Under the pieces are notes generated by a model. That model made no database searches. It worked only from the letters and a program-made list of their open reading frames with translations, and was not told the DNA's origin. Of a stretch of 49,232 nt of DNA, positions 21,244 through 39,552 are shown piece by piece. Where the stretch lies: positions 1 through 49,232 of the forward strand of contig LCQF01000006.1 in NCBI GenBank assembly GCA_001004005.1. Direction: 5' to 3'. Source of the stretch: Parcubacteria group bacterium GW2011_GWA2_49_9 (lineage in GTDB: Bacteria > Patescibacteriota > Minisyncoccia > Phycocordibacterales > UBA10002). Position 1 is the stretch's first letter; every line of letters starts with the position of its first letter. The position numbers were made by a program, and so were the translations under genes.

Positions 21244-21776
21244 GCACAGGTGCAAAAGAACTAGTTATCGTGGATTATGGTGTCGGGAATCTTCAGAGCC
21301 TGAAGAGAGCTTTTAACTTTTGTGGCGTAGAGCCGGTTATCTCTGAAGACCCTGACGTCGTCGCCGTTGCCGATATACTGGTTCTTCCTGGAGTCGGCTC
21401 GTTTGAGGCCGGCATGCGTGGCCTCAAACTTCGTGGTCTTACCGAAGTTGTGAAACGGGTTATCAAATTTCAGGAGCTTCCCGAAAAAGAAAAAATCCCA
21501 CAGGTCGGCTGGAACAGTGTGCTTCCTTCAGCATCAGTTTCGTGGAGAGGCACCATCTTCAATGGCCTTGAGAAAAGATGTATTGTGTATTTTGTCCATT
21601 CGTATATCTTCAAGCCCGAAGATACGCAAAATGTGCTAGGAGAGACAATCTATGGAGGCCTCACATTTTGCTCGGCGGTGCGCAAGGGAAATGTCTACGG
21701 AACACAGTTTCATCCCGAAAAGAGCGGGACCGTCGGGCTTGAGATACTTAAGAATTTTGTTACGCTAGTAAACTAA
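21240..21776 (+). CDS. HisH-like glutamine amidotransferase subunit (WbuY type) lacking the nucleophile-cysteine segment
   Basis: 'VIVDYGVGNL.S', 'LVLPGVGSF', 'VGWNSV', 'YFVHSY', 'GTQFHPEKSG' are present. The 'G.CLGMQ' block normally between 'EVVKR' and 'KF..(M/V)GWN' is absent, and the protein is 178 aa versus ~200. Confidence 0.8.
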   Translation: MSTGAKELVIVDYGVGNLQSLKRAFNFCGVEPVISEDPDVVAVADILVLPGVGSFEAGMRGLKLRGLTEVVKRVIKFQELPEKEKIPQVGWNSVLPSASVSWRGTIFNGLEKRCIVYFVHSYIFKPEDTQNVLGETIYGGLTFCSAVRKGNVYGTQFHPEKSGTVGLEILKNFVTLVN

Positions 21777-21781
21777 GTTGT

Positions 21782-23095
21782 ATGGCAAAACGAGAATCAG
21801 AATCAAAAGAACTTGAAACAAAGTACGGACTTCCCCGTGATGTCCGGTTTTGCGCTCGGTGCATCATTTCGAACCAACGGCCGAATTCCACCGTGGAATT
21901 CACGCACACCCGCGACTCCAAAAAGAAGACTATTCATTTTGATACGCAAGGCGTCTGTGATGCCTGCAGATTTGCGGAAAAGAAGCAAAGCGAAATAGAC
22001 TGGAAAAAACGCGACGAGGAACTTCGGGAGCTTTGTGACAGGTTTCGCAAAACGAACGGCGAGTACGATTGCATCGTGCCCGGTTCGGGAGGCAAAGACA
22101 GCTTTTACGCGGCGCATATGCTGAAGTACGTCTATGGCATGCATCCGCTCACGGTGACATGGGCTCCACATCTGTACACCGACTGGGGTTGGAAGAATTT
22201 TCAATCGTGGATTCACGCGGGGTTTGATAACTATCTGCATACGCCAAACGGCCGAGTACACCGACTGCTCACGCGCCTTGCCGTCGAAAATCTATTTCAT
22301 CCGTTCCAGCCGTTTATCCTCGGCCAGAAGTCTCTCGCCCCCAAGCTCGCGCTCCGTTTCAACATCCCGCTCGTTTTTTATGGGGAAAACGAAGCCGAGT
22401 ACGGCAACGCGCTCGCGGACCTCGAAAAGGCGGAACGCGACTGGTCGTATTTCACCTCGTCCGACAAAACCAAAGTGTTTCTCGGCGGGGTTTCTGTCTC
22501 GGAACTGCAAAAAAAATACGGAGTCGACGCAGCAGACCTGAAGCCGTATTTTCCCGGGAACCCCAAGGATATGTCGAAGCTCGGACTTGAAGTACATTTT
22601 CTCGGATACTATCTCAAGTGGCACCCCCAATCCGCGTACTACTACGCGGTGGAACATGGCGGCTTTCAAGCCTCTCCCGAGCGCACACCCGGTACGTATA
22701 GTAAGTACAACTCGATTGACGACAAGGTGGACGACCTGCACTATTACACGACGTTCGTGAAATTTGGCATCGGGCGTGCGTCCTATGACGCCTCGCAGGA
22801 AATTCGCAATGGGGAGATAACGCGCACGGAAGGTGTCGCTTTGGTGAAGCGATTCGACGGGGAATATCCAACACGATTTGAAAAAGAACTTTTTGAGTAC
22901 TTGAGCATATCACCCAAAGAATTTCCGCTTGCCCACAAGGAGTTCGCGCATCCCGAGATGACCCGTCAGTATTTTATGAAACTCGCCGATTCGTTCCGCT
23001 CGCCACATTTGTGGAAGAAGGAAGGTACAGAATGGAAGCTTAGACATACCTTAGAGCCTGTTCATAATCTAACCGTATTCTATGGCTCAACATAA
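21782..23095 (+). CDS. N-acetyl sugar amidotransferase (PP-loop ATP pyrophosphatase; WbuX/PseA/WbpG-type)
   Basis: N-terminal Cys pairs 'CARCIISNQRP..GVCDAC', the PP-loop 'VPGSGGKDS', and adjacency to the HisH/HisF-like pair. Confidence 0.85.
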   Translation: MAKRESESKELETKYGLPRDVRFCARCIISNQRPNSTVEFTHTRDSKKKTIHFDTQGVCDACRFAEKKQSEIDWKKRDEELRELCDRFRKTNGEYDCIVPGSGGKDSFYAAHMLKYVYGMHPLTVTWAPHLYTDWGWKNFQSWIHAGFDNYLHTPNGRVHRLLTRLAVENLFHPFQPFILGQKSLAPKLALRFNIPLVFYGENEAEYGNALADLEKAERDWSYFTSSDKTKVFLGGVSVSELQKKYGVDAADLKPYFPGNPKDMSKLGLEVHFLGYYLKWHPQSAYYYAVEHGGFQASPERTPGTYSKYNSIDDKVDDLHYYTTFVKFGIGRASYDASQEIRNGEITRTEGVALVKRFDGEYPTRFEKELFEYLSISPKEFPLAHKEFAHPEMTRQYFMKLADSFRSPHLWKKEGTEWKLRHTLEPVHNLTVFYGST

Positions 23096-23239
23096 ACACT
23101 TGCCTGCCGAACTGTCCAAAATTCTGCTACAAATCGCGTCTTTCTCGTCAGCGTACCTCGATATGCTTGCCTCGAAATCCGCAATTTTCGCAACGAATTT
23201 TGAACATTTCGCCTAGGCATTAGATTTTGAACAGGCTCT
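23053..23239. repeat. 20-bp inverted repeat pair bounding ~190 bp that spans the amidotransferase 3' end and the downstream spacer
   Basis: 'agagcctgttcataatctaa' (23053-23072) versus 'ttagattttgaacaggctct' (23220-23239), reverse complement with one mismatch. Confidence 0.6.
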
Positions 23240-23253
23240 TACGTTAAACAACC

Positions 23254-23967
23254 ATGAAATTACTCGCCGTCATACCCGCCCGTGCGGGCTCCACACGCCT
23301 TCGCAATAAAAACATCCGGAATTTTTGCGGGAAGCCGCTTATCGCCTACGCCATCGAGCAGGCGAAACGACATCCTCGTGTTGATCGGGTCATTGTCGAT
23401 ACCGATTCACAAGCTATCGCCGATGTTGCGATTGCCTACGGAGCGGAAGCGCCGTTCCTGCGGCCGGCGGCACTCGCTACCGCAACCGCTGGTATCAATG
23501 ATGCGCTTCTGCTCCTGCTTCAAAGACTGCGGGAGAAAGAAAAGTATGTATCGACGCATGTACTGCTTCTCCAAGCGACATCACCGCTTCGTAGTGACGA
23601 AGACATTACCGAATGCATACGGGTAATGGAAAAGACCAAGGCGACGACCGCCATAACCGTGGTGAGTACTCACCCCCAGCTTCACAACCTGTCGCCGAAC
23701 GGAGAAATAGTTCTGGCGAATAAGAGGAAAGTTAATTCGACGAACAGTCAGGCATGGCCCCAAGGATATCTTCAGAACGGCGGCGTATACATCGTGAAGA
23801 CTTCCGCGTTTCTCCTCGAGAAAGAGATTGAGACTAAACATACGTACGCCGTTATCTCGGAAAAATGGCGCGCCGTCGATATTGATACTCCCGAAGATTT
23901 CGTAGTAGCCGAGTATCTGTATACAAAGAAAGACGCGATTAAAAAAGATATTACCGATTTTAACTAA
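23254..23967 (+). CDS. Acylneuraminate cytidylyltransferase family (CMP-nonulosonic acid synthetase, NeuA/LegF/PseF-like)
   Basis: 'AVIPARAGSTRL.NKN...GKPLIAYAI', 'LQATSPLR', and a length of 237 aa. Confidence 0.9.
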   Translation: MKLLAVIPARAGSTRLRNKNIRNFCGKPLIAYAIEQAKRHPRVDRVIVDTDSQAIADVAIAYGAEAPFLRPAALATATAGINDALLLLLQRLREKEKYVSTHVLLLQATSPLRSDEDITECIRVMEKTKATTAITVVSTHPQLHNLSPNGEIVLANKRKVNSTNSQAWPQGYLQNGGVYIVKTSAFLLEKEIETKHTYAVISEKWRAVDIDTPEDFVVAEYLYTKKDAIKKDITDFN

Positions 23968-23999
23968 CGAATCATGCCAAAGAAAAAAGTCTGTATCAC

Positions 24000-24239
24000 T
24001 TGTTTTTTTACGGTGAAAATGAAGCCGGCAGATATAATTCAATCGATGATAAGATAGACGATCTTCATTACTACACTACCTTCAAATTCGGTATCAGGAG
24101 AGCGTCACATGATGCTTCTCAAGAGATTCGGAGTGGTGATATGATACGCAGAGGGAGTATTGCTCTTGTCAGACGTTTCGATGGTGAATATCCAATACGA
24201 TTTGAAGAAGAATTGTTTGGCAGTTTAAACTCCCGGTGA
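24000..24239 (+). pseudogene. Relic of a second N-acetyl sugar amidotransferase paralogue (heavily truncated with internal losses)
   Basis: 'FFYGENEA|GRYNSIDDKIDDLHYYTTFKFGIRRASHDASQEIRSGDM..ALVRRFDGEYPIRFEEELF' matches two separated blocks of 21782-23095: 'VFYGENEAEYG' and 'YNSIDDKVDDLHYYTTFVKFGIGRASYDASQEIRNGE..ALVKRFDGEYPTRFEKELF'. An out-of-frame 'MPKKKVCITC' at 23974 resembles the family's N-terminus. Confidence 0.8.
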
Positions 24240-24434
24240 CTGAATCACTAAGACAGCACAAACCTTAATTGCAGAAGTCATTCACCCGTGACATAAGCAT
24301 GTCAGTATGCGAATGATATAAACTATCCGAGTCACCACGAATAAGACAACTCACGCTCGAGTGCAAAGTTGTTCGGATGACTGGGTAGGAGTTTAGCACT
24401 TCGCGGCGGCCCACTTAATCTTTCTTTTCTTATC

Positions 24435-25301
24435 ATGGGATTTCTCGTAGGTATTCTGACTGGATTTTTCACTTCGGTCGGCAATAACCAATTAAAGAAA
24501 CTGGCGGGAGTGCCAGCTTCGTTCATTGTCAGTAACCAATTTGTGATTGGAACTATCATGTTGGCAATAGCCGTTTCCTTGTTTGGAAACTGGGAATTGC
24601 CTCCTCTTGCATTTTTTGCACTGCTCGTGATACTCACCACTATCGAATATCTCAACTCGTATATATACGCGAGAGCACTTCAACTTTCTCCCCAATCTCT
24701 TGTTGGTCCACTCTATTCTCTTTCGGTTGTCTTTCTCGCCCCTCTTGGAATACTGTTTTTGGGTGAGACGCCAAACATGTCTGGGTGGCTCGGCATCATC
24801 CTCTCGGTTGTAGGTTCGCTACTACTTGGTTTTGATACGGGAGACCCTGGAATCCGTCCTGCTGTGCGCGCTCTGCTTAGGGAGCGGGGAAGTTATTTTA
24901 TGCTCGGCTCGGCGCTGCTTTCCGCCGTCGCCGTCATTCTCACCAAATTCTCATACGTCTCCGTGCCCCCGCTCCTTTCCGGGTTTTGGATTTATGTAGG
25001 ACTCACGGTCATTTCCACGGGTATAGCGTTTAGGAGAGGTCTTCCCGTGGTTTCAAAAGAGTTGAGCATGCCATTTTTGTACCTTCTTCTTGCCACAGGT
25101 TTTGGGGTGGTTTTTCACTATATCGGTCTCGCACTTATCCCCGCGGCTTACTTTATTGCTTGTAAGCGCTCCAGCGTTCTATTTGATGTCGTATTGGGGA
25201 GGGTGGTGCATGGCGAAACGCACTTTCGCTCCCGCCTTTTGGGAGCGTTTGTTATGTTTGTGGGGGTATTGCTTGTAATGTTTTCCGGGAGAACTTTTTA
25301 G
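24435..25301 (+). CDS. EamA/DMT-superfamily transporter
   Basis: About 10 predicted TM helices in two similar halves; 288 aa. Confidence 0.75.
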   Translation: MGFLVGILTGFFTSVGNNQLKKLAGVPASFIVSNQFVIGTIMLAIAVSLFGNWELPPLAFFALLVILTTIEYLNSYIYARALQLSPQSLVGPLYSLSVVFLAPLGILFLGETPNMSGWLGIILSVVGSLLLGFDTGDPGIRPAVRALLRERGSYFMLGSALLSAVAVILTKFSYVSVPPLLSGFWIYVGLTVISTGIAFRRGLPVVSKELSMPFLYLLLATGFGVVFHYIGLALIPAAYFIACKRSSVLFDVVLGRVVHGETHFRSRLLGAFVMFVGVLLVMFSGRTF

Positions 25302-25515
25302 GTTAGGGGGAGTTATACACAAGGCGGGAGCAGAGGACCAACAATTTGCATTGAAAGAATTTTCTTATATTGTATTTATCCATGATTCTTCTTGAAAATT
25401 GCCGATGTCTTCCGTCCCCCCACATCTCTAAGGAGAAAAAGAAAGAAATCTTGAAATTAGGACATCACGCCAGTTCGGGATGTATCACAATTCATTAGTT
25501 TAGTATACGATTTCT

Positions 25516-26463
25516 ATGTCAAAAACATCTAAGCAAGTATTTATCACCGGCGGTGCCGGATTCATCGGGCAGGCGGCAGCGAAAGCCTTCGCTAAAGCGG
25601 GTTACCGTGTAAAGACTTTTGACCTCTCCTCGCCCAAGGAGAGCATAGGGGAGCATGTAACCGGAACCATCATGTTTCCGGAAGAACTCTATAATGCCAT
25701 GAAGGGTTCTGACTATGTCGTGCATCTTGCGGCCATGCTCGGGGTGAAGCGAACGGAAACAGCACGGCTTCAGTGTCTGACCGTAAATACCATAGGTACC
25801 ATCAATGTGCTTGATGCGGCGGTTAAGGCGGGCGTGAAGAAAATAGTATTCGCCTCGTCGTCAGAGGTATACGGCGAACCTATCAAGACACCGCTTTCGG
25901 AAACCGACATTGTGTTTCCGAAATCCGTCTACGCGGTCTCAAAATTGGCCGGAGAAGAGTACATGCGGGCGTACAAGCAAAGCCACGACCTCGATTTTTC
26001 GATTGTCCGTTTTTTTAATGTGTACGGTCCGGGGCAGGTTGCGGAATTTGTGATGCCGAATTTTATCAAAGCCGCGCTTGCGGGAATGCCTATCCCAATA
26101 AACGGAGACGGGACGCAGGTGCGCTCATTCTGCTACGTGGATGACGCGGCGCGCGGAGTCCTCCTTTCGCTTGAGAGCAAGAAAGCGAACGGTGAGGTAT
26201 TCAACATCGGCAACGATGCCGCGGCTATTTCTCTCAATGACCTCGCGCACAAAGTGCTCACACACGCCGGCAAAAACAGGAAACATGTCGTGTATCTCAA
26301 AGAACATCAAGCTGACCGTCTTCACTCGCGCGAGATCAAGACCCGTACGGCAGATATTACCAAGGCTCGAAAAGTGCTGAAGTACAAACCCAGTGTACAC
26401 CTCGATGAAGGTATCAAGCGCATTATCAAAAGCCGGAATATCCCCGACTCGAAAGCGCTTTAA
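25516..26463 (+). CDS. NAD-dependent epimerase/dehydratase (UDP-sugar 4-epimerase-like SDR)
   Basis: 'VFITGGAGFIGQ', 'VVHLAAM', 'ASSSEVYG', 'YAVSKLAGE', 'RFFNVYGPG'. Confidence 0.88.
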   Translation: MSKTSKQVFITGGAGFIGQAAAKAFAKAGYRVKTFDLSSPKESIGEHVTGTIMFPEELYNAMKGSDYVVHLAAMLGVKRTETARLQCLTVNTIGTINVLDAAVKAGVKKIVFASSSEVYGEPIKTPLSETDIVFPKSVYAVSKLAGEEYMRAYKQSHDLDFSIVRFFNVYGPGQVAEFVMPNFIKAALAGMPIPINGDGTQVRSFCYVDDAARGVLLSLESKKANGEVFNIGNDAAAISLNDLAHKVLTHAGKNRKHVVYLKEHQADRLHSREIKTRTADITKARKVLKYKPSVHLDEGIKRIIKSRNIPDSKAL

Positions 26464-26474
26464 TTTCTTCACCC

Positions 26475-27569
26475 ATGAACAACAACATGATTCACTTCGG
26501 TTCTGTTTCCGTCGGCGAAGGGAAACCTTGCGTGGTTATCGCGGAGGGGTGTGATAACCACGGCGGGAGTCTCACGAAGGCAAAAGAAATGGCCGCGGCG
26601 GCAAAAGAGTCCGGCGCAGACATTATCAAATTCCAGTTGCACCTCCCCGACGAGGAAATGGTGAAAGATGAAATGGATAAAGTTTCTTCCGGCGGTGCGT
26701 TTAAGCAGTGGGGGTCACTCTACGGCTTTATCAAAGCTCACCAGCTTTCGGTGGAAGGCCATGCCGACCTTATGGCCTACTGCAAAAAAATCGGCATAGA
26801 GTACCTCTGCACGCCGTTTTCACTGAGGGCCGCCGAGCTCCTGCGCGACATGGGCGCGACCGCCTTCAAAATCGGTTCCGGCGAAACCGAGGATTTGCCC
26901 ATGCTCGAGGAGGTGGCGAAGATGGGGAAACCGATGATGATAGCGACTGGTATGACAACCAAGGAAGAACTCGACGGGACGGTCACAACGATGCGTGCCA
27001 TCGGCACGCCATTTTGTCTTGCCCATTGTATTTCGGTCTATCCCGTAAAACGCCTGCGAGATTTGCATTTCGGAACCATCGCCGCTTACAGGGAGCGCTA
27101 CGACGTACCGGTCGGCTGGTCGGACCACACGCCGCCCGAAGGCATCACCGATGAAGAATCGGGCCGACAGTTTTCCGAAAATGAAATTCTCGCGGTGGCG
27201 CTCGGATGCGGCGCGAAGTTCATCGAAAAACACTTCACGCTTGACCGCGCCACGAAAGACGCCGACAGCTACTTCTCGCACGATCCGCAGACTCTGAAAA
27301 GCCTTGTAGAAAATGTCCGGCTTTGGGAACGTGCGCTCAAGGAACGTGACGGCGTGCTGACGGGAGAAAAAGGCGTCCGTTTGTGGGCGAAGCGAAGTCT
27401 TGTCGCTGTAGCGGATATTACCCGCGGTACGCCGCTTACACGGGAGCTTTTTACGTCCAAGCGTCCCGGCGTCGGCGTGCTCTCAAAAGGATATAAAGCC
27501 GTTCTTGGCAAGAAAGCCTCGCGCGACATTGCTGCGGGTGAAATAATCTACCCAAAAGATTTGTTGTAG
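26475..27569 (+). CDS. neuB: N-acetylneuraminate/legionaminate synthase family (NeuB/LegI/PseI-like) with C-terminal SAF domain
   Basis: 'GKPCVVIAEGCDNHGGSL..AKEM..AAKESGADIIKFQ', 'FKIGSGE', and a C-terminal 'RSLVAVADI.RGTPLT.ELFTSKRPG.G'. Confidence 0.88.
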   Translation: MNNNMIHFGSVSVGEGKPCVVIAEGCDNHGGSLTKAKEMAAAAKESGADIIKFQLHLPDEEMVKDEMDKVSSGGAFKQWGSLYGFIKAHQLSVEGHADLMAYCKKIGIEYLCTPFSLRAAELLRDMGATAFKIGSGETEDLPMLEEVAKMGKPMMIATGMTTKEELDGTVTTMRAIGTPFCLAHCISVYPVKRLRDLHFGTIAAYRERYDVPVGWSDHTPPEGITDEESGRQFSENEILAVALGCGAKFIEKHFTLDRATKDADSYFSHDPQTLKSLVENVRLWERALKERDGVLTGEKGVRLWAKRSLVAVADITRGTPLTRELFTSKRPGVGVLSKGYKAVLGKKASRDIAAGEIIYPKDLL

Positions 27570-27575
27570 AAGTCT

Positions 27576-28730
27576 ATGCGAACGATATGCGCAATGACGG
27601 CCAATCGGGCGGACTTTAGCCGCATCGAAACCATACTCGAAGCGCTACAAAAACGCTCCGACGTAGAGCTTTCGCTTGTCGTGCTCGGTTCGCATATCAT
27701 GGAGCAGACGGGAAAAACGATCGAAGAGATAGAGCGGAAAGGATTTTCGATCACTGAAGTCGTCAAGAGCGGCCGGACCGGAGATACTCCTGCCGACATG
27801 GCCGCGTCGGTCGGCTCGTACATTGCGGAGCTCACGAAAGTTTTAGAGCGCCTCTCGCCCGATATCGCACTCGTGCCGGTTGACCGCTTCGAATCGCTCG
27901 CCATGGGGACCGCCGCGGCACTTATGAATATCTGCGTCGCGCACATTCAGGGCGGGGAAGTGACCGGTACCGTCGATGAAAGCATTCGCCACGCGCTTAC
28001 TAAGCTCTCGCATTTACATTTCGTTTCAACCGAAGAGTGCCGGAAACGCGTCATTAAAATGGGCGAGCCCAAGCAGTTTGTGTTTAACGTCGGCTGTGCG
28101 GGCACCGATCTTCTCTTGCGGGTTACGCCACTCTCCCGCGAGGCGACACTACAGGCGCTGAACGAGGGTGTTGCCGAAACGGAAAAGTTGGATCCGAAAA
28201 AGCCTTACCTACTCTTTTTGCAGCATCCGGTTACAACCGAATTTGGAGAGAGTGCTGCCCAGATAACCGAGACACTAGAAGCACTTTCCGGCTTTGACGA
28301 GCAACTCGTTGTGCTTTGGCCCAACATCGACGCGGGGAGCGACGCGGTGTCCCGTGCTCTCAAAAAATATCAAACCTCTTCCAAACGGCCGTTCGTTATT
28401 TTCAAGAATATCCCGTCGGGGCTGTACGCGAACGTGCTCCGAAACGCATCGGCTATGGTTGGAAATTCCTCGAGCGGCATCCGCGAAGCCTGCTACTTCG
28501 GCACGCCGGTCGTGAATGTCGGTTCGCGGCAGAACCGCCGTGAGCGGGGACACAATGTAACGGATGCCAGTTATGACCGTTCGGCAATTTCAAAAGCCGT
28601 TTCAAATCAGCTCGCGCACGGCACGTACAAACGGGAAGACGTGTACGGAGACGGAAAAAGCGGCGAGCGGGTCGCAGAGCTTCTCGCCACTGCTCCGTTG
28701 CCTCCCATTCAGAAGGTGATAACCTATTGA
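27576..28730 (+). CDS. neuC: UDP-N-acetylglucosamine 2-epimerase, hydrolysing (NeuC/LegG type)
   Basis: 'ICAMTANRADFSR', 'VAHIQGGEVTGTVDESIRHALTKLSHLHF', 'GNSSSGIREA..FGTPVVNVGSRQ.RRE'. Confidence 0.88.
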   Translation: MRTICAMTANRADFSRIETILEALQKRSDVELSLVVLGSHIMEQTGKTIEEIERKGFSITEVVKSGRTGDTPADMAASVGSYIAELTKVLERLSPDIALVPVDRFESLAMGTAAALMNICVAHIQGGEVTGTVDESIRHALTKLSHLHFVSTEECRKRVIKMGEPKQFVFNVGCAGTDLLLRVTPLSREATLQALNEGVAETEKLDPKKPYLLFLQHPVTTEFGESAAQITETLEALSGFDEQLVVLWPNIDAGSDAVSRALKKYQTSSKRPFVIFKNIPSGLYANVLRNASAMVGNSSSGIREACYFGTPVVNVGSRQNRRERGHNVTDASYDRSAISKAVSNQLAHGTYKREDVYGDGKSGERVAELLATAPLPPIQKVITY

Positions 28731-28734
28731 AACC

Positions 28735-29676
28735 ATGACCTGTGTCATTTGCGGCTCAACCAAACAAAGCGTCATCCGCGACACCCTTCGGTATGGGGTG
28801 AAGCGCGATGTCCTCCGTTGTTCGAAATGCGGACTCGTCTTTCTTGCCTCGCAGAAAGGGACGGACACCTATTATGCAGGCAAGGAGTACCGCAAACGCC
28901 ACGGTCCGACTCCCGGCAAGGCATCCTCAATGCGCGAGATTTTCGATGCTTATTTTCCGCACCAGGGTCCGATTGTGAAGGCGCTTAAGAACCACCTGCG
29001 ACCCGGAATGAGTGTGCTTGATGTCGGATGCTCCACCGGACACTTTCTTGCCGCCCTCAAAGGAAAGGTAAAAACTCGCGTCGGACTCGAACTCGGGCAG
29101 GACGAAGCCGCGTTTATCCGCAAGAACCTTGATTTTAAAGTCTATACCGAACCCATCGAATCCGCGCGTATAGACGAAGGTCCGTTCGACCTCGTCACCG
29201 CCTTTCAGGTTCTCGAGCATATTCCCGAACCTGTTTCGTTTCTCCGGGGCATCGCGAAGAATCTCAAACCAAACGGACTTCTGTATCTCGAGCTACCAAA
29301 CATCGATGACGCACTCCTTTCGGTGTTTAAGGTAAAGGGCTACGCCGATTTCTACTACCGGGAGCCGCACGTGTCCTACTATTCGAAAAACACACTTATG
29401 GCTTTGCTTCGAAAGACCGGATTCAACGGAGAAGTGAAAACGGTCCAGCGCTACAATTTTACGAATCAGATGCGCTGGATTCTTACCGGCAAACCGCAGA
29501 CGACCTTCGCGCAGGGAAACGGAACGCCGGTGCTCGTGACCGACGAAAGCGTCCCGTCAAGAATACGAGCTTCACTCAACGTTTTTTTTAAGGACGCCGA
29601 TATACGCTACCGAAAGCTTATCGAACAAAACGGAGCAGGGGACAATCTAACCTTTTTGGGGCGTAAAACGTTATAG
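28735..29676 (+). CDS. Class I SAM-dependent methyltransferase with N-terminal zinc-ribbon
   Basis: 'CVICGS...CSKCGLVF', 'VLDVGCSTGHFL', 'DLVTAFQVLEHI', 'LKPNGLLYLELPN'. Confidence 0.85.
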   Translation: MTCVICGSTKQSVIRDTLRYGVKRDVLRCSKCGLVFLASQKGTDTYYAGKEYRKRHGPTPGKASSMREIFDAYFPHQGPIVKALKNHLRPGMSVLDVGCSTGHFLAALKGKVKTRVGLELGQDEAAFIRKNLDFKVYTEPIESARIDEGPFDLVTAFQVLEHIPEPVSFLRGIAKNLKPNGLLYLELPNIDDALLSVFKVKGYADFYYREPHVSYYSKNTLMALLRKTGFNGEVKTVQRYNFTNQMRWILTGKPQTTFAQGNGTPVLVTDESVPSRIRASLNVFFKDADIRYRKLIEQNGAGDNLTFLGRKTL

Positions 29677-29723
29677 AATGTATGTCAATAAGGACTCACG
29701 CGACACTTATGGGTCGGGTTGTT

Positions 29724-31499
29724 ATGAAGAGGATTAGGTTGCAAAACCTATTTTCTTTGTGCTCCCGCGCATTCGGTCCGTATAAGGCGGCGGTTGTTGG
29801 TATGGCGATTCTTAGTTTTTTAAGCGGTACCCTTGAAGGCGTCGGCATTACTACCGTTATCCCGCTTTTTTCCGTTATCGTCGGAGGAGAAGCTACCGAC
29901 GTCATTTCACACGCGATAGCCGGCCTGTTCGCTTTCCTGCACCTCCCCTTTACGGCGAAGTTTCTGCTGGGGTTCATGGTGTGTTTGTTTTTTGCCAAAG
30001 CCGTTTTTCTTTTCTTCTCACAGCAACTTACCGCACATGTAACTTCCGACTTTGAAAAAAAGATGCGCAGTTCACTTCTGCGCCTTACCTTTACGGCGAA
30101 TTGGCCGTTTCTTTCTTCACAGAAAGTTGGGCATCTCGACCAGATGCTCACGACGGAAGTTTCCAACAGCTCAGCGATACTCCTGTATCTTAGCAACGCG
30201 ATTTTCGTGCTCGTCAACCTGTTCGTCTACAGCTTCCTTGTGTTCAATATTTCTCCTTCAATCGCCGCGCTCACAGTATTTTTCGGAGCCGTTGTCTTTT
30301 TCATCTTTATGCCGCTTATGCAGAAAACACGGATGACGTCGGAAAAAATGGTGCGCCGAAATAAGGAACTTGCCCACTACGCGAGCGAGCATATCATCGG
30401 TGCGAAAACGCTGAAGGCGATGCGTCTTGAAGAGCCTGTTTTCTTACGTGGGACATTCCTCGCCGAGAAGATGCGCGGACTCTATCTCCGGCTTTCATTC
30501 CTGAAAAACATAACCGGTGCACTCGTGCAACTCGCAGGCGTTTTCTTTGTAGTCGGCCTCTTTATTTTCCTCTACAAAACCTCGGTGTTTCAGTTCGCTT
30601 CGTTTGCCGTTGCTGTCTATGCGCTGAATAAGGTCTTCAGTAATGTTCAATTTGCCCAATCAAGCGCGCACGCGATCAGCATGCAAATACCGTATCTTGA
30701 AAGCCTTCTTCGCCATATCGACGAAGCCACGCTAAGTGGCGAGACGGAAACCGGACACGGGGATTTTTCCTTTACACATGAACTTGCCTTTAACAAAGTG
30801 GACTTTGCCTATTCCGGCAAAGATGCGGCGCTTTCCTCCGTCGGTTTTACGGTTAAGAAAGGTGACATGGTTGGGATTGTAGGTCCGTCTGGAGCCGGAA
30901 AGACCACATTGGTTGACCTACTGCTTCGCCTCATTGTGCCGCAGGCAGGAAGTATTCTTCTTGACGGAAAAGATATCAGCGATATCAGTCTCTCGAAATG
31001 GAGGGGGCATATAGGATATGTTTCGCAGGAAATATTCCTGCTGAACGATACGATTGAAAACAATATACGTTTTTACGATGCGGCCATGACCACGGAACAT
31101 ATCATTGAAGCCGCGAGGCTTGCCAATATCTACGATTTTGTTGATTCGCTTCCCGAAAAATTTAAGACCATCGTCGGTGAGCGGGGAGTCCTCCTTTCGG
31201 GCGGACAAAAACAACGCGTCGTGCTTGCGCGTGTGCTTGCTCGGAAGCGTGAAATCCTCGTGCTTGACGAAGCCACCAGCGCGCTTGATAACGAATCAGA
31301 AGTCCTGATACAGAAAGCCATTGAAGGACTTCGCGGCAGGATGACCGTACTTGTCATCGCGCATCGCCTCTCCACCGTGAAGGCTTCGGATAAGCTTATC
31401 GTGCTTGCCGAAGGGAAGGTCGTGGAAACAGGTTCGCCCGAAGCGCTTCTCAAAGACAAGGATTCGTATTTTTCCAAAGTAAATAATCTTCGAAACTGA
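29724..31499 (+). CDS. ABC transporter, fused permease/ATPase (MsbA-like exporter)
   Basis: Six N-terminal TM segments; Walker A 'GPSGAGKTT', signature 'LSGGQKQR', Walker B 'ILVLDEATSALD', H-loop 'IAHRLST'. The ORF is open from 29682. Confidence 0.92.
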   Translation: MKRIRLQNLFSLCSRAFGPYKAAVVGMAILSFLSGTLEGVGITTVIPLFSVIVGGEATDVISHAIAGLFAFLHLPFTAKFLLGFMVCLFFAKAVFLFFSQQLTAHVTSDFEKKMRSSLLRLTFTANWPFLSSQKVGHLDQMLTTEVSNSSAILLYLSNAIFVLVNLFVYSFLVFNISPSIAALTVFFGAVVFFIFMPLMQKTRMTSEKMVRRNKELAHYASEHIIGAKTLKAMRLEEPVFLRGTFLAEKMRGLYLRLSFLKNITGALVQLAGVFFVVGLFIFLYKTSVFQFASFAVAVYALNKVFSNVQFAQSSAHAISMQIPYLESLLRHIDEATLSGETETGHGDFSFTHELAFNKVDFAYSGKDAALSSVGFTVKKGDMVGIVGPSGAGKTTLVDLLLRLIVPQAGSILLDGKDISDISLSKWRGHIGYVSQEIFLLNDTIENNIRFYDAAMTTEHIIEAARLANIYDFVDSLPEKFKTIVGERGVLLSGGQKQRVVLARVLARKREILVLDEATSALDNESEVLIQKAIEGLRGRMTVLVIAHRLSTVKASDKLIVLAEGKVVETGSPEALLKDKDSYFSKVNNLRN

Positions 31500-31500
31500 T

Positions 31501-32928
31501 ATGCGGCTTTTTCTTATACAGTGGAGTGGCAAAGAATTGGGAATGATTGATGTCGTGAAGCGTTTACAGCGCGACTATACGATTGCGTATTGGGTGCTAC
31601 CCAATATCGAAAAAGAGGTGGATAAGGGAGAGTTCCCCTCGACAATCTTTCATGAACACGCAGATGCTCTTCAGGGGAAGCCAGCACCGGATGTGGACGT
31701 ATCGGGTTTCGAGCCGCCGAGCGCACAGCTGCTCGAAGAGCTCTCGACCACTGAATCAGTTGTTCTTACCATGATGAATAAGCTTCTCGGTCACCTGTCG
31801 GTTACCGAGCGCAAACGTCTCTATTACCGGATACTCGGTTATTGGTCCGGTGTCTTCAAAACACATCGCCCCGATGTGGTTATCTTTCCACTTGTGCCGC
31901 ACACAGTCTATGACCTCGTTATCTACGACCTAGCCAAGTCTTTGGGAATCCGGACCGTCATGTTTACGGCCACGCAGGACTTTATACGCCTCATGCCGAT
32001 GACCGATTTTGTTGAAGGTATTTCCAAACTTAACCGCGAGTTTACGGCACGGGAGAATGAACGGGTCACGCTTAGTGATATCGCTGTAGATATACGAGCG
32101 TACATCGCCAAACACACTGAAGCAAAGGGCGATCCCACCCCCCCGAATATGCGGAATATGAAGGAAAAGTACGGGACGAAAAAATCAGTCATTCTTGCGC
32201 GCGCGGTCAAAGACCTGACCGTATTTCAAAAAAGCTTTCACTATCTGCGCAAGCGGTTTGGCGCCAATCTAGAACGTGAATACCAGAATGTCTCGCGCAT
32301 TCCCGATCTTTCAAGGAAATTTGTCTACGTTCCGCTCCAGTTTCAGCCCGAAGCCACCACCTCGCCCCTTGGCGGTGTCTTTGTTGACCAGCGGCTTCTC
32401 ATAGAGACGCTTTCCGCAGCGCTTCCCAAAGACTGGGTTATCTACGTGAAGGAACACCCGCGCCAGTTCATCTTCTACGGCTTGAATTTTTCGCAGTATC
32501 GTTATCGGGGATATTATGAGGGTATCGCTAAACTCCCGAATGTTCGTATTGTTCCCACAGGTACGGACACATTCTCGCTCATCCAGGCCTCGCAGGCGGT
32601 GGCGCTCAATACCGGCACTGCGGGGCTTGAGGCGGTACTTCGTGGGAAGCCTGTGCTTGCGTTCGGATATGCGTGGTATAGAGGCTGTCCCGGGATATTT
32701 TCCGTTTCGGATACGGCCTCTTGCAAGGCGGTATTTGATACTATACTCTCTGGATTCTCAATTAACCGCAACAAGCTCATTACGTTTTTTGCCTGTGTGG
32801 ACCGTGTGAGCTTTAAGGGGTATGTCGAGCCACATATGCAAAAACTTTGCGGATTGAGTCCTTCGGAAAACGCGGATGCTTTGACAAAAGCACTCATTGC
32901 GGAAATAGGTCGATTGGCTTACACTTAA
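31501..32928 (+). CDS. Capsule polysaccharide biosynthesis protein family (Capsule_synth, KpsS/KpsC-like), second paralogue
   Basis: 'FVYVPLQFQPEATT', 'VIYVKEHPRQ', 'NVRIVP', 'AVALNTGTAGLEAVLRGKPVLAFG'. It aligns block by block with 15591-17099. Confidence 0.72.
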   Translation: MRLFLIQWSGKELGMIDVVKRLQRDYTIAYWVLPNIEKEVDKGEFPSTIFHEHADALQGKPAPDVDVSGFEPPSAQLLEELSTTESVVLTMMNKLLGHLSVTERKRLYYRILGYWSGVFKTHRPDVVIFPLVPHTVYDLVIYDLAKSLGIRTVMFTATQDFIRLMPMTDFVEGISKLNREFTARENERVTLSDIAVDIRAYIAKHTEAKGDPTPPNMRNMKEKYGTKKSVILARAVKDLTVFQKSFHYLRKRFGANLEREYQNVSRIPDLSRKFVYVPLQFQPEATTSPLGGVFVDQRLLIETLSAALPKDWVIYVKEHPRQFIFYGLNFSQYRYRGYYEGIAKLPNVRIVPTGTDTFSLIQASQAVALNTGTAGLEAVLRGKPVLAFGYAWYRGCPGIFSVSDTASCKAVFDTILSGFSINRNKLITFFACVDRVSFKGYVEPHMQKLCGLSPSENADALTKALIAEIGRLAYT

Positions 32929-33074
32929 TTTCTAACGCTATGATGTTTTTACATCGTTTAAAAGACAAAATAGAAGATTTTAGCTACCGTCGCATTGCCT
33001 CCTGTCTAGAAAATGATAACCTATTGAGATAACCTACTAAGGAGCACTATACATCCCAACTACTCAAGGAAAAT

Positions 33075-34115
33075 ATGACCAATCAATATACACATAAGTG
33101 CGTGTTCGTCACCGGAGGCACGGGCTCGATTGGCTGGCAAATCGTGCTTGAAGCGCTCCGGCACCGCCCAAAGGAGGTTGTCGTCTACAGCCGCGATGAA
33201 ACGGCGCAGTTCGAGCGCAAGTGGGAACTCCCGTCGGACGCGGCGGTCCGTTTTGTCATCGGCGATATCCGCGACAAAGAGCGTCTGCATGAGGCGATGC
33301 GCGGCAGCCACATCGTGTTCCATGCTGCGGCGCTCAAGCACGTGCCGATATGCGAGAGCAACCCTTCCGAGGCGGTGAAGACCAATGTTGTCGGTACGCA
33401 GAACGTGATTGATTGCGCCCTTGAACACAATGTGGAAAAAGTGATCGGCATTTCCACCGATAAAGCCGCGAACGCCAGCAACGTGCTCGGCAGCACCAAG
33501 TTCCTTGCCGAAAAACTTATGCGGGCTACGAATTTGCAGACAGGCGACCGGCAGACTAAATTCTGTTTCGTGCGGTTCGGTAATGTGCTGGGCAGCCGTG
33601 GCTCGGTGGTGCCGCTTTTTGTCGCGCAGGCGAAAGCCGGCGGTCCTCTTACGATTACCGATCCCGCGATGACGCGTTTTTTCATGACCCTTCCGCAGGC
33701 GGTAACGCTTATTTTCAAGGCTGCACAGCTTGTACGCAACCGCGAGATTTTCATCTTGAAAATGCCGACAGCCCGAATGGGGGATCTCGCGCAAGCGGTC
33801 ATTTCGCTTGTCGTTCCGTTGGGAACGAAAAGAAAGAATATCGCGATACGTGTTATCGGCATCCGGGAGGGGGAACGCACTCACGAGGTAATGCTTTCGT
33901 ATGAGGAATCTCGGGTCGCCCTTGAAACGGACGATATGTTCATTCTTTTGCCCGATTCTCATTCGTCTTCGGAACAGGGGTGGAAACAGTCCTATCCGTC
34001 TATGCGTCCGGCCCGCATCGGTGCGTATGAATCGCAAAAAGAGAAGACTCTTTCAGTTGCCGATCTCAAGAAGATGTTGGAACAGGATAACGTACTACGC
34101 CATGCAGACCTGTAA
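33075..34115 (+). CDS. UDP-N-acetylglucosamine 4,6-dehydratase, PseB/FlaA1/CapD family
   Basis: 'VFVTGGTGSIG', 'VYSRDE..Q', 'FVIGDIRDKERL', 'VFHAAALKHVP.CE.NP.EAVKTNV.GT.NVI', 'STDKAANA.NV.G.TK', 'VRFGNVLGSRGSVVPLF', 'ITDP.MTRFFM'. Confidence 0.9.
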   Translation: MTNQYTHKCVFVTGGTGSIGWQIVLEALRHRPKEVVVYSRDETAQFERKWELPSDAAVRFVIGDIRDKERLHEAMRGSHIVFHAAALKHVPICESNPSEAVKTNVVGTQNVIDCALEHNVEKVIGISTDKAANASNVLGSTKFLAEKLMRATNLQTGDRQTKFCFVRFGNVLGSRGSVVPLFVAQAKAGGPLTITDPAMTRFFMTLPQAVTLIFKAAQLVRNREIFILKMPTARMGDLAQAVISLVVPLGTKRKNIAIRVIGIREGERTHEVMLSYEESRVALETDDMFILLPDSHSSSEQGWKQSYPSMRPARIGAYESQKEKTLSVADLKKMLEQDNVLRHADL

Positions 34116-34155
34116 GATGTGCGATTCACCACAAAGAGCATACTCGTTCTCGGTA

Positions 34156-34301
34156 GTAACTCCTCACGCTCTTAACATCCCCCTTATTAAAGGGGGTGGA
34201 CGCATTCTTATGCGCCGGGGGATGTTACCGAACACCCCTCCTGCCGAAGACGGCAGTGCTCCCCTTGCTTAGGGGAGATACAGACGAGTGTGAGGGGTTA
34301 C
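34156..34301. mobile_element. MITE-like palindromic element, intergenic full-length copy (~146 bp) with 16-bp terminal inverted repeats
   Basis: 'gtaactcctcacgctc' (34156-34171) matches the reverse complement of 'gagtgtgaggggttac' (34286-34301) at 14/16. Internal hairpins are 'cccccttattaaaggggg', 'gcgcattcttatgcgc', 'ctgccgaagacggcag' and 'ctccccttgcttaggggag'. Confidence 0.75.
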
Positions 34302-34380
34302 TCTCGATAGAGTGGACACTTTGGCTACTTTGTACTATTTCATTAAACAATAGCGCGGCTCATAACGAGCACACTGTAAA

Positions 34381-35151
34381 ATGACTCGAGAAAAACTGCT
34401 TGCAAACTTAGGGGAACACATGCGGGAGCTCTATGTTACCGGAAAGTATTATGTATCGGTACCGCCGATTCCCGACAAGAACTTTGAAGAGGGGTATTGG
34501 CACACGATTATAGACCCCGACGGAAAGAAGCGCGACCGCCTTGCCGAGAAGGACCAATGTCTTGCCGATATAGACTATGTGTTTGAGTACCTGAAAACCG
34601 TGAAGCACGGTTCGGTGCTTGATGTCGGTTGCGGACTCGGTTGGTTTCTCTCCGCGTTACCCAAGGGTTGGAAAAAATACGGACTTGAGGTCTCGAAAGT
34701 AGCCGCCGAGTATGCGGCAAAGTTTGGAGATATTTTCCATGGAACACTCCTTACGAGTCGTTACAAGGAAAATATGTTTGACGTGATTTTTATGCACCAC
34801 GTCATAGAGCATCTCCCAAAGCCGGAAGATGATTTTAAAGTCATCAAACGGATACTAAAGCCTGGCGGACTGCTGATACTGGGTACCCCCGATTTTGATT
34901 CAGGTTGCGCACGTTTGTTCGGAAAAAATTACCGCCTGCTTCATGACGGGACGCATGTCAGCCTATTCTCAAACGACTCTCTTCATCGCTTTTTACGCGA
35001 CAATGGATTCAGTATAGTGCGTGTTGAATATCCGTTCTGGAAGACACGGTTCTTCACCAAAGAAAATCTGATGCGCCTTTTCAACATCCGTGTTATGTCG
35101 CCACCTTTCTACGGCAATTTTATGACTTTCTTCTGCACCAATGAAAAATAA
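34381..35151 (+). CDS. Class I SAM-dependent methyltransferase
   Basis: 'VLDVGCGLGWFL', 'FDVIFMHHVIEHL', 'LKPGGLLILGTPD'. Confidence 0.87.
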   Translation: MTREKLLANLGEHMRELYVTGKYYVSVPPIPDKNFEEGYWHTIIDPDGKKRDRLAEKDQCLADIDYVFEYLKTVKHGSVLDVGCGLGWFLSALPKGWKKYGLEVSKVAAEYAAKFGDIFHGTLLTSRYKENMFDVIFMHHVIEHLPKPEDDFKVIKRILKPGGLLILGTPDFDSGCARLFGKNYRLLHDGTHVSLFSNDSLHRFLRDNGFSIVRVEYPFWKTRFFTKENLMRLFNIRVMSPPFYGNFMTFFCTNEK

Positions 35152-35791
35152 ACCACGCATCGTGTCCGTACTGTTGGCCCGCGGCGGAAGCAAGGGAATA
35201 CCTCGGAAGAACATCATACCTCTTGGAGGGAAGCCGCTCATACAGTATACGATTGACGCCTCAATACATGGAGGAGCTGATGAAACGTGGGTCAGTACGG
35301 ACAGTGATGAGATTGCCGAAGTCTCTGAACGTCTTGGTGCGAAGATATTGAAACGACCCGCCGAACTTGCGGGCGATACGGCGTCCAGTGAATCCGCGCT
35401 CCTGCATTTCGCGGAGAATGTTGATTTTGACTGGCTTATCTTCATCCAGCCGACGTCGCCCCTCCTCCTTCCCGATGATATAAAAAAGGGAATAACGAAG
35501 ATGAAAGAAGGGAAGTACGATTCGGTTTTCAGTGCCTACGAAGAGCATTGGATGGCGACGTGGGATGAGAAAGGACAGCCGCGGGGGTGGGATATCTTTC
35601 ATCGTCCCCGTCGGCAGGATGCAGAACCAGTCTTCCGCGAGAACGGCGCGTTTTATATCACCAAAAAAGAGCATCTTCTCAAATCAAGACTTCGTTACAG
35701 CGGTATCATTGGTATCGTGGAGATGCCGTTCTATAGAAGCTTTCAGATAGATACGCAAGAGGACCTCGCCTTTGTTGAGAAAATTATATAA
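35141..35791 (+). CDS. Acylneuraminate cytidylyltransferase family, second copy (CMP-ulosonic acid synthetase-like)
   Basis: 'LLARGGSKGIPRKN...GGKPLI.YTI', 'IQPTSPLL', 'RRQD..PVFRENGAFYI'. It overlaps the upstream gene by 11 nt. Confidence 0.87.
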   Translation: MKNKPRIVSVLLARGGSKGIPRKNIIPLGGKPLIQYTIDASIHGGADETWVSTDSDEIAEVSERLGAKILKRPAELAGDTASSESALLHFAENVDFDWLIFIQPTSPLLLPDDIKKGITKMKEGKYDSVFSAYEEHWMATWDEKGQPRGWDIFHRPRRQDAEPVFRENGAFYITKKEHLLKSRLRYSGIIGIVEMPFYRSFQIDTQEDLAFVEKII

Positions 35792-36092: not shown

Positions 36093-36665
36093 TTAATCGG
36101 AAAAGGTGTCCTCTACCTCTCCGCATATCGCGTGGATAAGGGCAATCTGTACTTCCTGTATATGCGTCGTACGCGTATCGGTAAGCGCTATCGTGATGTT
36201 GGCGCATCCAGCGAGCAACCCCCCGCTATTTCCTAGAAGACACACACTTGTTATACCAAGGGTTTTTGCTTTTTCCACGGCACGGACGATATTTTTGGAG
36301 GTACCACTTGTGGAAATACCGAAAAAAATATCCTCCGGTTTTGCGAACGCTTCAAGCTGTCTCGCGAATACATCTTCAAACTTATGGTCATTGCTCCACG
36401 CGGTAATGGTTGGAGAAGAAGTGAGAGCGATGGCGGGGCGTGCTCGGCGTTCTTTCATGAATCGTCCGACAAACTCGGTGGCGAAATGCTCTGCGTCTGC
36501 CGCGCTTCCACCGTTTCCGGCGATAAGCAGTTTACCGCCTTTGGCGAAGCACTTGGAAATAAGAGTAGCCGCTGCGCTCACATTTCTCATCAATACCGTG
36601 TCTTCACGTGCCGCATCAATGGCTGCGGCCGTTTCTTTCAAATGTTGTGTAATAAAGGTTTCCAT
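36093..36665 (-). CDS. SIS-domain sugar-phosphate isomerase (GmhA/phosphoheptose isomerase-like)
   Basis: 'GGKLLIAGNGGSAADAEHFATEFVGRF', 'ISTSGTSKN', and a length of 190 aa. Confidence 0.85.
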   Translation of the reverse strand: METFITQHLKETAAAIDAAREDTVLMRNVSAAATLISKCFAKGGKLLIAGNGGSAADAEHFATEFVGRFMKERRARPAIALTSSPTITAWSNDHKFEDVFARQLEAFAKPEDIFFGISTSGTSKNIVRAVEKAKTLGITSVCLLGNSGGLLAGCANITIALTDTRTTHIQEVQIALIHAICGEVEDTFSD

Positions 36666-39530: not shown

Positions 39531-39552
39531 TGTTTCTTTTGACATACTGAAA

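Follow-up and report, generated by a model that had tools for sequence, protein, structure and literature searches.

A Parcubacteria surface-glycan island with two predicted CMP-ulosonic acid pathways, one of them linked to an acetamidino module

The stretch of DNA analyzed here, hereafter the window, comprises 49,232 nucleotides of contig LCQF01000006.1 from Parcubacteria group bacterium GW2011_GWA2_49_9 (GenBank assembly GCA_001004005.1). An earlier reading of positions 21,782 to 35,791 and their surroundings (the original prediction) had proposed a legionaminic acid (Leg)-type pathway to a cytidine monophosphate (CMP)-activated nonulosonic acid (NulO), equipped with an acetamidino module, in a genome resembling those of the candidate phyla radiation (CPR). 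Families were assigned to the encoded proteins with Pfam and NCBIfam hidden Markov models (HMMs), and structural relatives were ranked by bit score to sequences of the Protein Data Bank (PDB). The genes of interest form two sets, module A (20464-34115) and module B (35141-39600) [Table 1]. The dehydratase, epimerase, synthase and cytidylyltransferase open reading frames (ORFs) on which the proposal had been built all exist and match the families named for them. The inventory was nonetheless incomplete, a second NeuB, the CMP-transferase identity of the first ORF of module B, the GmhA-like isomerase, the KdsC-like phosphatase and two glycosyltransferases having been missed.

Table 1. Genes of modules A and B and associated features of the window (positions are those of the window; SAM, S-adenosylmethionine; SDR, short-chain dehydrogenase/reductase; NDP, nucleoside diphosphate; HexNAc, N-acetylhexosamine; GlcNAc, N-acetylglucosamine; ABC, ATP-binding cassette).
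Feature	Coordinates	Strand	Family evidence
WbuZ/HisF-like cyclase-fold subunit	20464..21243	+	His_biosynth 214 bits
WbuY/HisH-like glutaminase	21240..21776	+	TIGR01855 149 bits vs cutoff 105
WbuX-type N-acetyl sugar amidotransferase (PP-loop ATPase)	21782..23095	+	TIGR03573 386.5 bits vs cutoff 203.2
CMP-nonulosonate synthetase 1 (NeuA/LegF/PseF family)	23254..23967	+	CTP_transf_3 91.5 bits
Extended SDR, LegB/GMD-like putative NDP-HexNAc 4,6-dehydratase	25516..26463	+	top NCBIfam match LegB
NeuB1, nonulosonate synthase with SAF domain	26475..27569	+	NeuB 206 bits + SAF
NeuC-type hydrolysing NDP-HexNAc 2-epimerase	27576..28730	+	TIGR03568 393 bits vs cutoff 235.9
SAM methyltransferase after NeuC	28735..29676	+	Methyltransf_23
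PseB/Pen/CapD-type UDP-GlcNAc 4,6-dehydratase, soluble	33075..34115	+	Polysacc_synt_2 344 bits
CMP-ulosonate synthetase 2	35141..35791	+	CTP_transf_3 91 bits
GmhA-like SIS sugar-phosphate isomerase	36093..36665	-	gmhA 177 bits, under cutoff 209
NeuB2, short ulosonate(-phosphate) synthase without SAF domain	36863..37729	+	NeuB 261 bits
Small cupin, possible sugar(-phosphate) isomerase or epimerase	37848..38288	+	Cupin_2
TylF-type O-methyltransferase	38333..39031	-	TylF 87 bits
KdsC-family HAD phosphatase, frame-broken in window (~100-bp collapse ~39341)	39076..39600	+	
DegT-family sugar aminotransferase	12442..13620	-	LegC HMM 204, PseC HMM 200 bits
Second Capsule_synth/BFO_1060-like glycosyltransferase	15591..17123	-	PF05159 E=1e-8
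EamA/DMT membrane transporter	24435..25301	+	EamA x2
ABC exporter (MsbA/PglK/HepA-like), candidate lipid-linked-glycan flippase	29682..31499	+	ABC_membrane + ABC_tran
Capsule_synth/BFO_1060-like glycosyltransferase, putative CMP-ulosonate transferase	31501..32928	+	PF05159 E=4.5e-10
SAM methyltransferase	34381..35151	+	Methyltransf_23 89 bits
Wzy_C (O-antigen ligase/PglL-type) with C-terminal TPRs, candidate glycan ligase/oligosaccharyltransferase	39618..41810	+	Wzy_C 75 bits

The acetamidino trio foreseen at 20464-23095 is present, and its members match the expected families. WbuX displays an intact PP-loop (SGGKDS at residues 102-107) and an intact tetracysteine set (C24..C27..C59..C62); an SGGxDS PP-loop and a tetracysteine zinc motif are the defining features of WbuX proteins (PMC10607449). 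The amidotransferase system thus comprises a WbuX with its motifs, a glutaminase with its catalytic cysteine (as read in assemblies L001 and L003) and a HisF-like partner which scored 287 bits on the HisF model and 253 bits on the WbuZ model, both just under the respective cutoffs. HisF and HisH partners adjoin WbuX in relatives too. Homologues of WbuX sharing 40-71% identity were found within NulO cassettes on four annotated plasmids, two of which, from Rhizobium sp. WL3 and Azospirillum thermophilum, are of the canonical Leg type. Genes on the WL3 plasmid follow the order LegB, LegC, NeuC, NeuB, acetyltransferase, nucleotidyltransferase, CMP-transferase, then WbuX, WbuZ and HisH, and comparable layouts are seen on the plasmids of A. 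thermophilum, Azospirillum sp. TSA2s and Roseovarius. The closest annotated relatives of the window's WbuX lie within canonical legionaminic cassettes, identity to the WL3 protein reaching 71%, and no match to wbuX came up when all complete E. coli genomes were searched by blastn. Since WbuX homologues are found in NulO cassettes and the trio shares operons with NulO genes, notably a single operon in L182 (described below), its assignment to a nonulosonic acid, as originally predicted, is well founded by context.

The catalytic cysteine of the glutaminase is missing from the window itself, for reasons of assembly. The window was compared with a 54-kb groundwater-metagenome scaffold (ENA ERZ28564302 scaffold_1485), to which it is identical apart from collapses, and a further, independent assembly of the same sequence came from SRR1658344 (PRJNA268031). 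Relative to independent assemblies, the window is short of ~100-130 bp at positions 5440, 21458, ~39341, 45560 and 46712; its bases 1-207 match no other assembly (boundary 207/208), and it was reproduced exactly only in runs labelled 'simulated metagenome'. Genes cut or frameshifted by the collapses are an SDR, a methyltransferase, HisH, the KdsC-like phosphatase and, twice, SecA. The collapse at 21458 deprives HisH of 133 bp, the catalytic GICLG cysteine included, as seen upon alignment to L001 and L003 (missing segment GICLGAQ). Contigs X5 and X6 from real groundwater runs part from the window at exactly 21458, one of them carrying ~110 extra bases between the flanks. That HisH might be a true pseudogene was rejected, the missing stretch being present both in independent assemblies and in real-run contigs. 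The halves of the phosphatase lie in frames 0 and 2 of the window and are joined in an intact 187-aa protein in L006, and SecA is intact (879 aa) in L005. Because independent assemblies or real-run contigs carry the missing stretches, HisH, the phosphatase and SecA were all taken as intact in the organism.

Downstream of WbuX lie the other predicted NulO enzymes of module A. CMP synthetase 1 finds its best PDB matches among NeuA enzymes and lies directly 3' of WbuX in the window as it does in L182 and on the Azospirillum TSA2s plasmid. NeuB1 scored under both the NeuB and the PseI equivalog cutoffs (248 bits on NeuB versus 399.65); its homologues form a clade of their own centered on CPR genomes, and a metagenome scan with NeuB1 yielded only three close relatives. 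An archaeal homologue (L013) is located among housekeeping genes and is uninformative. NeuC, which passes its family cutoff, scored just 72 bits on the WecB model. The SDR next to NeuB1 scored 153 bits on the LegB HMM, far under the cutoff of 475, is the window's best match to Rhizobium WL3 LegB (30.5% identity) and carries an invariant SSSEVYG and YxxxK, the first of which reads TSTSEVYG in LegB, SSSEMFG in GMD and SSSSVYG in a 4-epimerase; the Ser-Glu pair is a dehydratase signature that the SDR has in common with LegB and GMD. Its best PDB relative is 8vr2 (156 bits, versus 104 bits for Pal); no useful literature was found on the structural relatives 8VR2/8VR3/8VR5. The PseB-like dehydratase further downstream reached 317 bits on the PseB HMM, under the cutoff of 408. 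Over the NeuB1-NeuC stretch (26001-30000), G+C content rises to 0.525-0.545 from a window average of ~0.49, which could hint at a different history, though the closest homologues are still those of CPR genomes.

Module A is one unit. In L182, an 8.7-kb contig from another groundwater sample, the genes for HisH, WbuX, the CMP-transferase, NeuB with its SAF domain, NeuC, the SDR, the methyltransferase, the PseB-like dehydratase and the ABC exporter follow one another on one strand with overlapping gene ends, so that the PseB-like gene stands in one operon with NeuB and NeuC. A 79.7-kb contig repeats the set as a capsular glycosyltransferase (minus strand), HisF, HisH, WbuX and SDR and, after an interval, CMP-transferase, NeuB, NeuC, methyltransferase and ABC exporter, with an SDR-DegT-GT4 group 6 kb upstream. 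The SDR-NeuB-NeuC core, in some cases with the CMP-transferase, recurs in L010, a Giovannonibacteria locus, and in L011 and L102. The SDR adjoins NeuB-NeuC in L010, L011, L102 and L182, and the methyltransferase occupies the same position after NeuC in both the 79.7-kb relative and L182. The description of the genome as CPR-like was likewise borne out, since NeuB1, NeuB2 and WbuX find their nearest named homologues in Candidatus Giovannonibacteria, Taylorbacteria and other Parcubacteria/Patescibacteria, and the stretch encoding NeuB2, the Wzy_C-TPR protein, MurB and SecA is syntenic with a Taylorbacteria contig. Two Epimerase_2 (NeuC-like) paralogues were seen in related CPR loci (L011 7190-15084 and L102 6347-8783), the former locus also encoding two CMP-transferases, two NeuBs and a 2-hydroxyacid dehydrogenase; on the strength of these paralogues, duplicated NulO modules seem common in the group.

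Module B is built differently. The best PDB matches of CMP synthetase 2 were PpNeuA (138 bits), which from its name and chain length only we take to be the Prymnesium parvum (P. parvum) CMP-ketodeoxynononic acid (Kdn) synthetase, and the mouse CMP-sialic acid synthetase (121 bits). The GmhA-like protein carries what are presumably the metal and catalytic residues (H-x3-E and Q...H), by comparison with E. coli GmhA, and the intact KdsC-like phosphatase of L006 passes its model (TIGR01670, 110.9 bits versus a cutoff of 106.95). The NeuB2 family, with 65-81% identity across CPR, Acidobacteriota, Gastranaerophilales, Omnitrophota, Firmicutes and Proteobacteria, occupies at least 544 loci in GTDB representative genomes. 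Neighbors were counted in 80 of these loci (L022-L101): a KdsC-like phosphatase adjoined the short NeuB in 66 (median gap 43 bp), a GmhA-like isomerase in 30 (median gap 270 bp), and NeuC and the cupin in none (0/80 each). Among the CPR loci with a short NeuB, 7/8 had a CMP-transferase and 4/8 a Wzy_C-TPR gene. A syntenic arrangement exists in Taylorbacteria and a collinear one in Acidobacteriaceae, and the synthase is paired both with a KdsC-family phosphatase and with a CMP-transferase, as expected of a route through phosphorylated intermediates. The logic of such a module is that of KdsD/KdsA/KdsC/KdsB. We infer a Kdn-type route via phosphorylated sugars, for which the Kdn pathway of Bacteroides thetaiotaomicron (B. 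thetaiotaomicron) and P. parvum offers a precedent (PMC6200933). The aldose phosphate could be mannose 6-phosphate (Man-6-P), giving Kdn, or, should the GmhA-like enzyme act on the substrate usual for GmhA, a heptose 7-phosphate; in the latter case, on a reading that we find doubtful, the GmhA-like/short NeuB/KdsC-like trio may condense heptose 7-phosphate with phosphoenolpyruvate (PEP) into a ten-carbon ulosonic acid. A literature search on ten-carbon ulosonic acids found nothing, and no described product of the short NeuB/KdsC/GmhA module was found in the literature searched.

Family membership, intact motifs and conserved linkage being directly observed, the reading toward which we lean, with confidence only slightly better than even, is that the region is the core of a ~40-kb surface-glycan island that makes two different CMP-activated ulosonic acids, the glycan then being assembled, flipped and ligated. 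Its substrates, order of steps and acceptor are what we infer from the enzyme families. In module A, the LegB-like SDR, either alone or jointly with the PseB-like dehydratase, would 6-deoxygenate NDP-GlcNAc; NeuC would remove the nucleotide and invert C2; NeuB1 would condense the resulting hexosamine with PEP; and CMP synthetase 1 would activate the product. WbuX may then adenylate the N-acetyl carbonyl, with ammonia from HisH/HisF replacing the oxygen to yield an acetamidino group, and the neighboring methyltransferase could possibly methylate the product. In module B, an aldose phosphate supplied by the GmhA-like isomerase would be condensed with PEP by the short NeuB2, dephosphorylated by the KdsC-like phosphatase and activated by CMP synthetase 2. 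The two glycosyltransferases with HP motifs would place the acids on a lipid-linked glycan, to be flipped by the ABC exporter and ligated to its acceptor by the Wzy_C-TPR protein. The product of module A would be a NeuC-dependent 5-acetamidino nonulosonic acid of legionaminic-like skeleton, probably 9-deoxy, with an amino or a hydroxyl group at C7. A 6-deoxy (Leg-like) skeleton is supported by the LegB-like SDR fixed beside NeuB1, with its dehydratase-type motif, and by the presence of a PseB/Pen-type dehydratase in the operon.

Several points weigh against this reading. Of all the enzymes, only WbuX, NeuC, HisH and the KdsC-like phosphatase passed their equivalog HMM cutoffs. Because NeuC, NeuB and NeuA suffice for N-acetylneuraminic acid (Neu5Ac), the dehydratases and WbuXYZ could serve another sugar. 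In neighbor-joining trees of few references and modest support, that of NeuB being computed from the catalytic barrel, the NeuB1 clade (100% bootstrap) was sister to N. meningitidis NeuB, weakly (65%), and NeuC claded with human GNE (74-89%). In module B, the GmhA-like gene lies on the opposite strand and is missing near NeuB2 in most loci. Finally, neither an acceptor nor an initiating phosphoglycosyltransferase was found on the examined sequence.

The same trees, in which Bacillus subtilis (B. subtilis) SpsE was the sole biochemically characterized LegI, address the phylogenetic check suggested with the original prediction: both enzymes grouped with Neu5Ac-type references rather than with Leg or Pse ones. 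Neither the clade joining the four NeuBs of Leg contexts (86%) nor that of PseI (100%) included NeuB1; LegG (5xvs) and WL3 LegG formed a separate clade (90%) with a one-residue insertion absent from the window's NeuC, whose bit scores were 250 to human GNE and 206 to LegG. The proposal that the route is legionaminic and not pseudaminic therefore holds in part, a NeuC-dependent CMP-NulO route being supported and the specific 'legionaminic' label not, NeuB1 and NeuC lying off the Leg clades. A pseudaminic (Pse) route can be set aside because PseG and PseH are both lacking from the scaffold and from L182. Absence searches (tblastn with reference proteins) covered the window, the remainder of the 54-kb scaffold (L017, L018) and the related operon L182. 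In this scope, Pfam, NCBIfam and tblastn revealed neither PtmE nor PseG, and no PseH, for which a GNAT acetyltransferase served as the tblastn stand-in; no GT28/PseG-like gene or PseH-like GNAT was seen in the island, a GNAT at 48102-48629 being without NCBIfam match. As had been noted originally, no dedicated N-acetyltransferase is evident in the island: three reference acetyltransferases detected no LegH, PglD or NeuD by tblastn in the window, L017, L018 or L182, and no island ORF gave a Hexapep/NeuD-type match. An RGP-like ORF (18380-19480) and the ORFs at 6326-8215 and 11586-12368 were considered as hidden PseG or acetyltransferase genes and rejected for want of any family match or tblastn similarity.

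A possible alternative, on the unlikely side in our estimate, is that the genes of module A make two unrelated sugars in the manner of E. coli O145, NeuC, NeuB1 and CMP synthetase 1 producing CMP-Neu5Ac from UDP-GlcNAc, and the PseB/FnlA-like dehydratase, an SDR reductase and WbuXYZ producing a 2-acetamidino-2,6-dideoxy-hexose of the 2-acetamidino-2,6-dideoxygalactose (FucNAm) or -glucose (QuiNAm) type. Such a scheme leaves no step missing, accommodates the Neu5Ac-type grouping of NeuB1 and NeuC (the NeuC, NeuB and NeuA families are all present, with only NeuC passing its cutoff), and agrees with the dehydratase being nearest the inverting PseB/CapE/FnlA group and with N-acetyl-L-fucosamine (L-FucNAc) being the WbuX substrate in O145 (PMC10607449). 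In the window and in L182, moreover, WbuXYZ is accompanied by a PseB-like gene of full length, and L010, L011 and L102 are devoid of both; in the 79.7-kb contig, Polysacc_synt_2 is represented just by a fragment of 196 aa. Set against this scheme, no enzyme of the FnlB/CapF or FnlC type is present, the SDR stays with NeuB-NeuC in loci that have no PseB-like gene and resembles a dehydratase rather than a reductase, the annotated WbuX relatives reside in NulO cassettes without an FnlA-like gene, and a CMP-transferase lies directly 3' of WbuX.

The canonical CMP-legionaminic route originally envisaged, in which the PseB/CapD-type dehydratase, DegT, a LegH encoded elsewhere, NeuC/LegG, NeuB/LegI and the CMP synthetase would give a 7-N-acetylated legionaminic acid whose 5-N-acetyl group is amidinated by WbuXYZ (Leg5Am7Ac), we judge unlikely. 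It can draw upon the presence of NeuC and absence of PseG, upon the close kinship of WbuX with its counterpart in the WL3 Leg cassette, and upon B. subtilis, which uses the soluble CapD-type dehydratase SpsM for Leg and in which Pen-Pal can replace SpsM (PMC7439481). The cited dehydratase is, in its PDB scores, nearer the PseB/Pen/CapE/FnlA group (Pen 253, FlaA1 247, CapE 234 bits, with FnlA in the 253-229 range) than PglF (159), and the LegB-like SDR next to NeuB1 is a better candidate for the step. As for the aminotransferase, a DegT-family gene does exist and LegC is its best NCBIfam match, with DegT also found within 6-7 kb in two relatives; its proposed role in Leg synthesis, in contrast, fared less well. 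DegT scored far under the cutoffs of the LegC (420) and PseC models and ranked perosamine synthase (165 bits) above PglE (131) and PseC (103) in the PDB. The only aminotransferase on the scaffold, it is located 2 kb from GMD and 12 kb from NeuB1, on the opposite strand, and is absent from compact operon L182. With the acetyltransferase and PtmE also lacking from the 54-kb scaffold and L182, NeuB1 and NeuC outside Leg-context clades and NeuB1 just 31% identical to WL3 LegI, module A would not, in our reading, be a canonical pathway to the N,N'-diacetylated acid, Leg5Ac7Ac.

The evidence from sequence on the legionaminic identity of the product is mixed. In gene content, the cassette as conserved appears to match none of the Neu, Leg and Pse schemes exactly, and we know of no Neu5Ac pathway of which a dehydratase-type SDR such as the one conserved here is part. 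A more specific form of the two-acid reading, which we find quite doubtful, would have the conserved CPR cassette (one or more dehydratase-type SDRs, NeuC, NeuB, CMP-transferase, WbuXYZ and methyltransferase, with no aminotransferase or acetyltransferase) make an undescribed 9-deoxy, 7-hydroxy, 5-acetamidino and possibly N-methylated acid, intermediate between sialic and legionaminic acids.

Candidates for transfer and export of both acids lie close by. The ABC exporter scored 322 bits on HepA, 309 on MsbA and 218 on PglK, all under cutoffs, and is kept downstream in L182, in the 79.7-kb contig and in the Taylorbacteria contig. The two Capsule_synth glycosyltransferases are paralogues of 24% identity with PLQxxPE and YVKEHP motifs in common; they match the BFO_1060 family with E-values of 7e-7 (the copy downstream of the exporter) and 2.7e-7 (the minus-strand copy), at just 28-30 bits versus a cutoff of 200. 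BFO_1060 is among the Tannerella forsythia (T. forsythia) homologues of Tanf_01245 and TFUB4_00887, which this species requires to decorate its O-glycan with the Pse or Leg derivative (PMC5420450). The Wzy_C-TPR gene follows NeuB2 in the Taylorbacteria contig as well. A PMT_2/ArnT-like GT-C protein, encoded on the scaffold shortly before the window begins (L018:167-1660), is itself a candidate for flipping or ligation.

The remainder of the island encodes an AsnB-type amidotransferase as well as several enzymes of the GT2 and GT4 families. GMD (9140-10252) and GDP-fucose synthase (17375-18346) make up a complete GDP-L-fucose branch, with a weak WbuC-family cupin (10347-10757) next to GMD. In view of this branch, the perosamine synthase-like DegT and the WbuC-family cupin, the island may also make GDP-perosamine or a related 4-amino-6-deoxyhexose. 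At least seven SAM methyltransferases were counted (4294-6407, 8238-9071, 28735-29676, 34381-35151 and, on the minus strand, 38333-39031), FkbM-type and TylF-type enzymes included, and the upstream part of the scaffold has a C-methyltransferase-like gene; such a density suggests a heavily methylated glycan. An IS200/Y1-transposase-like ORF of 233 aa (41838-42539, minus strand) separates the glycan island from MurB and SecA and is also found in independent assemblies.

Acetamidino modules within NulO clusters are familiar from Proteobacteria, Bacteroidota and Archaea, and the CPR proteins concerned here are already named in database annotation; what is new is the reduced composition of the cassette and the separate clades formed by NeuB1 and NeuC. 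The literature searched yielded no work on nonulosonic acids in CPR, Patescibacteria or Parcubacteria. CPR bacteria are tiny, metabolically reduced and mostly uncultured, and their cell surface mediates attachment to the host. A 40-kb island with two predicted CMP-ulosonic acid branches would commit considerable resources to capping sugars that are acidic and positively modifiable, and the genes likely matter for Parcubacteria, in many of which they occur. The cassette of module A may constitute a fourth route beside the textbook Neu, Leg and Pse pathways, and the short NeuB/KdsC/GmhA module spans hundreds of genomes from Acidobacteriota to CPR. Both modules are open to testing with recombinant enzymes.

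Among known systems, the Leg cassettes of the Rhizobium sp. WL3 and A. thermophilum plasmids, which are of the same kind as the Legionella pneumophila lipopolysaccharide locus for Leg5Am7Ac, resemble module A in combining NeuC, NeuB and a CMP-transferase with WbuX-HisF-HisH and a LegB-like SDR. They differ in carrying LegC, NeuD/LegH and PtmE within their operon, where the window offers only a distant DegT, and their NeuB and NeuC are just 31-36% identical to those of the window, which fall outside their clade. The O-antigen cluster of E. coli O145 carries nnaABC for Neu5Ac together with fnlABC and wbuXYZ for 2-acetamidino-2,6-dideoxy-L-galactose (L-FucNAm). Its NeuB, NeuC and NeuA, its WbuXYZ and its dehydratase of the PseB/FnlA family have counterparts in the window, which is devoid of FnlB and FnlC equivalents and has an extra LegB-like SDR fixed beside NeuB. 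The Bacillus routes, Pen/Pal for Pse in B. thuringiensis and SpsM for Leg in B. subtilis, likewise start with a soluble CapD-type enzyme and an extended SDR; Pen is the best PDB match of the PseB-like dehydratase, whereas the SDR is nearer 8vr2 than Pal, and the downstream aminotransferase and acetyltransferase of these routes are missing here. Module B resembles the CMP-Kdn pathway of B. thetaiotaomicron and P. parvum (PMC6200933) in relying on a NeuB-family synthase, a phosphatase and a CMP-transferase without NeuC, and differs from it by the linked GmhA-like isomerase, by a phosphatase scoring 89 bits versus the Kdn-9-P phosphatase cutoff of 180, and by a substrate that could be either Man-6-P or a heptose phosphate. 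The O-glycan of T. forsythia, which bears Pse5Am7Gra or a Leg derivative as its cap (PMC5420450), provides a parallel for the final steps, with an acetamidino NulO and the same family of HP-motif CMP-NulO transferases, although the N-terminal parts of the window's glycosyltransferases are unrelated and their similarity to BFO_1060 is weak. By likeness to this system, an S-layer or protein O-glycan is one plausible acceptor for the acids of the island.

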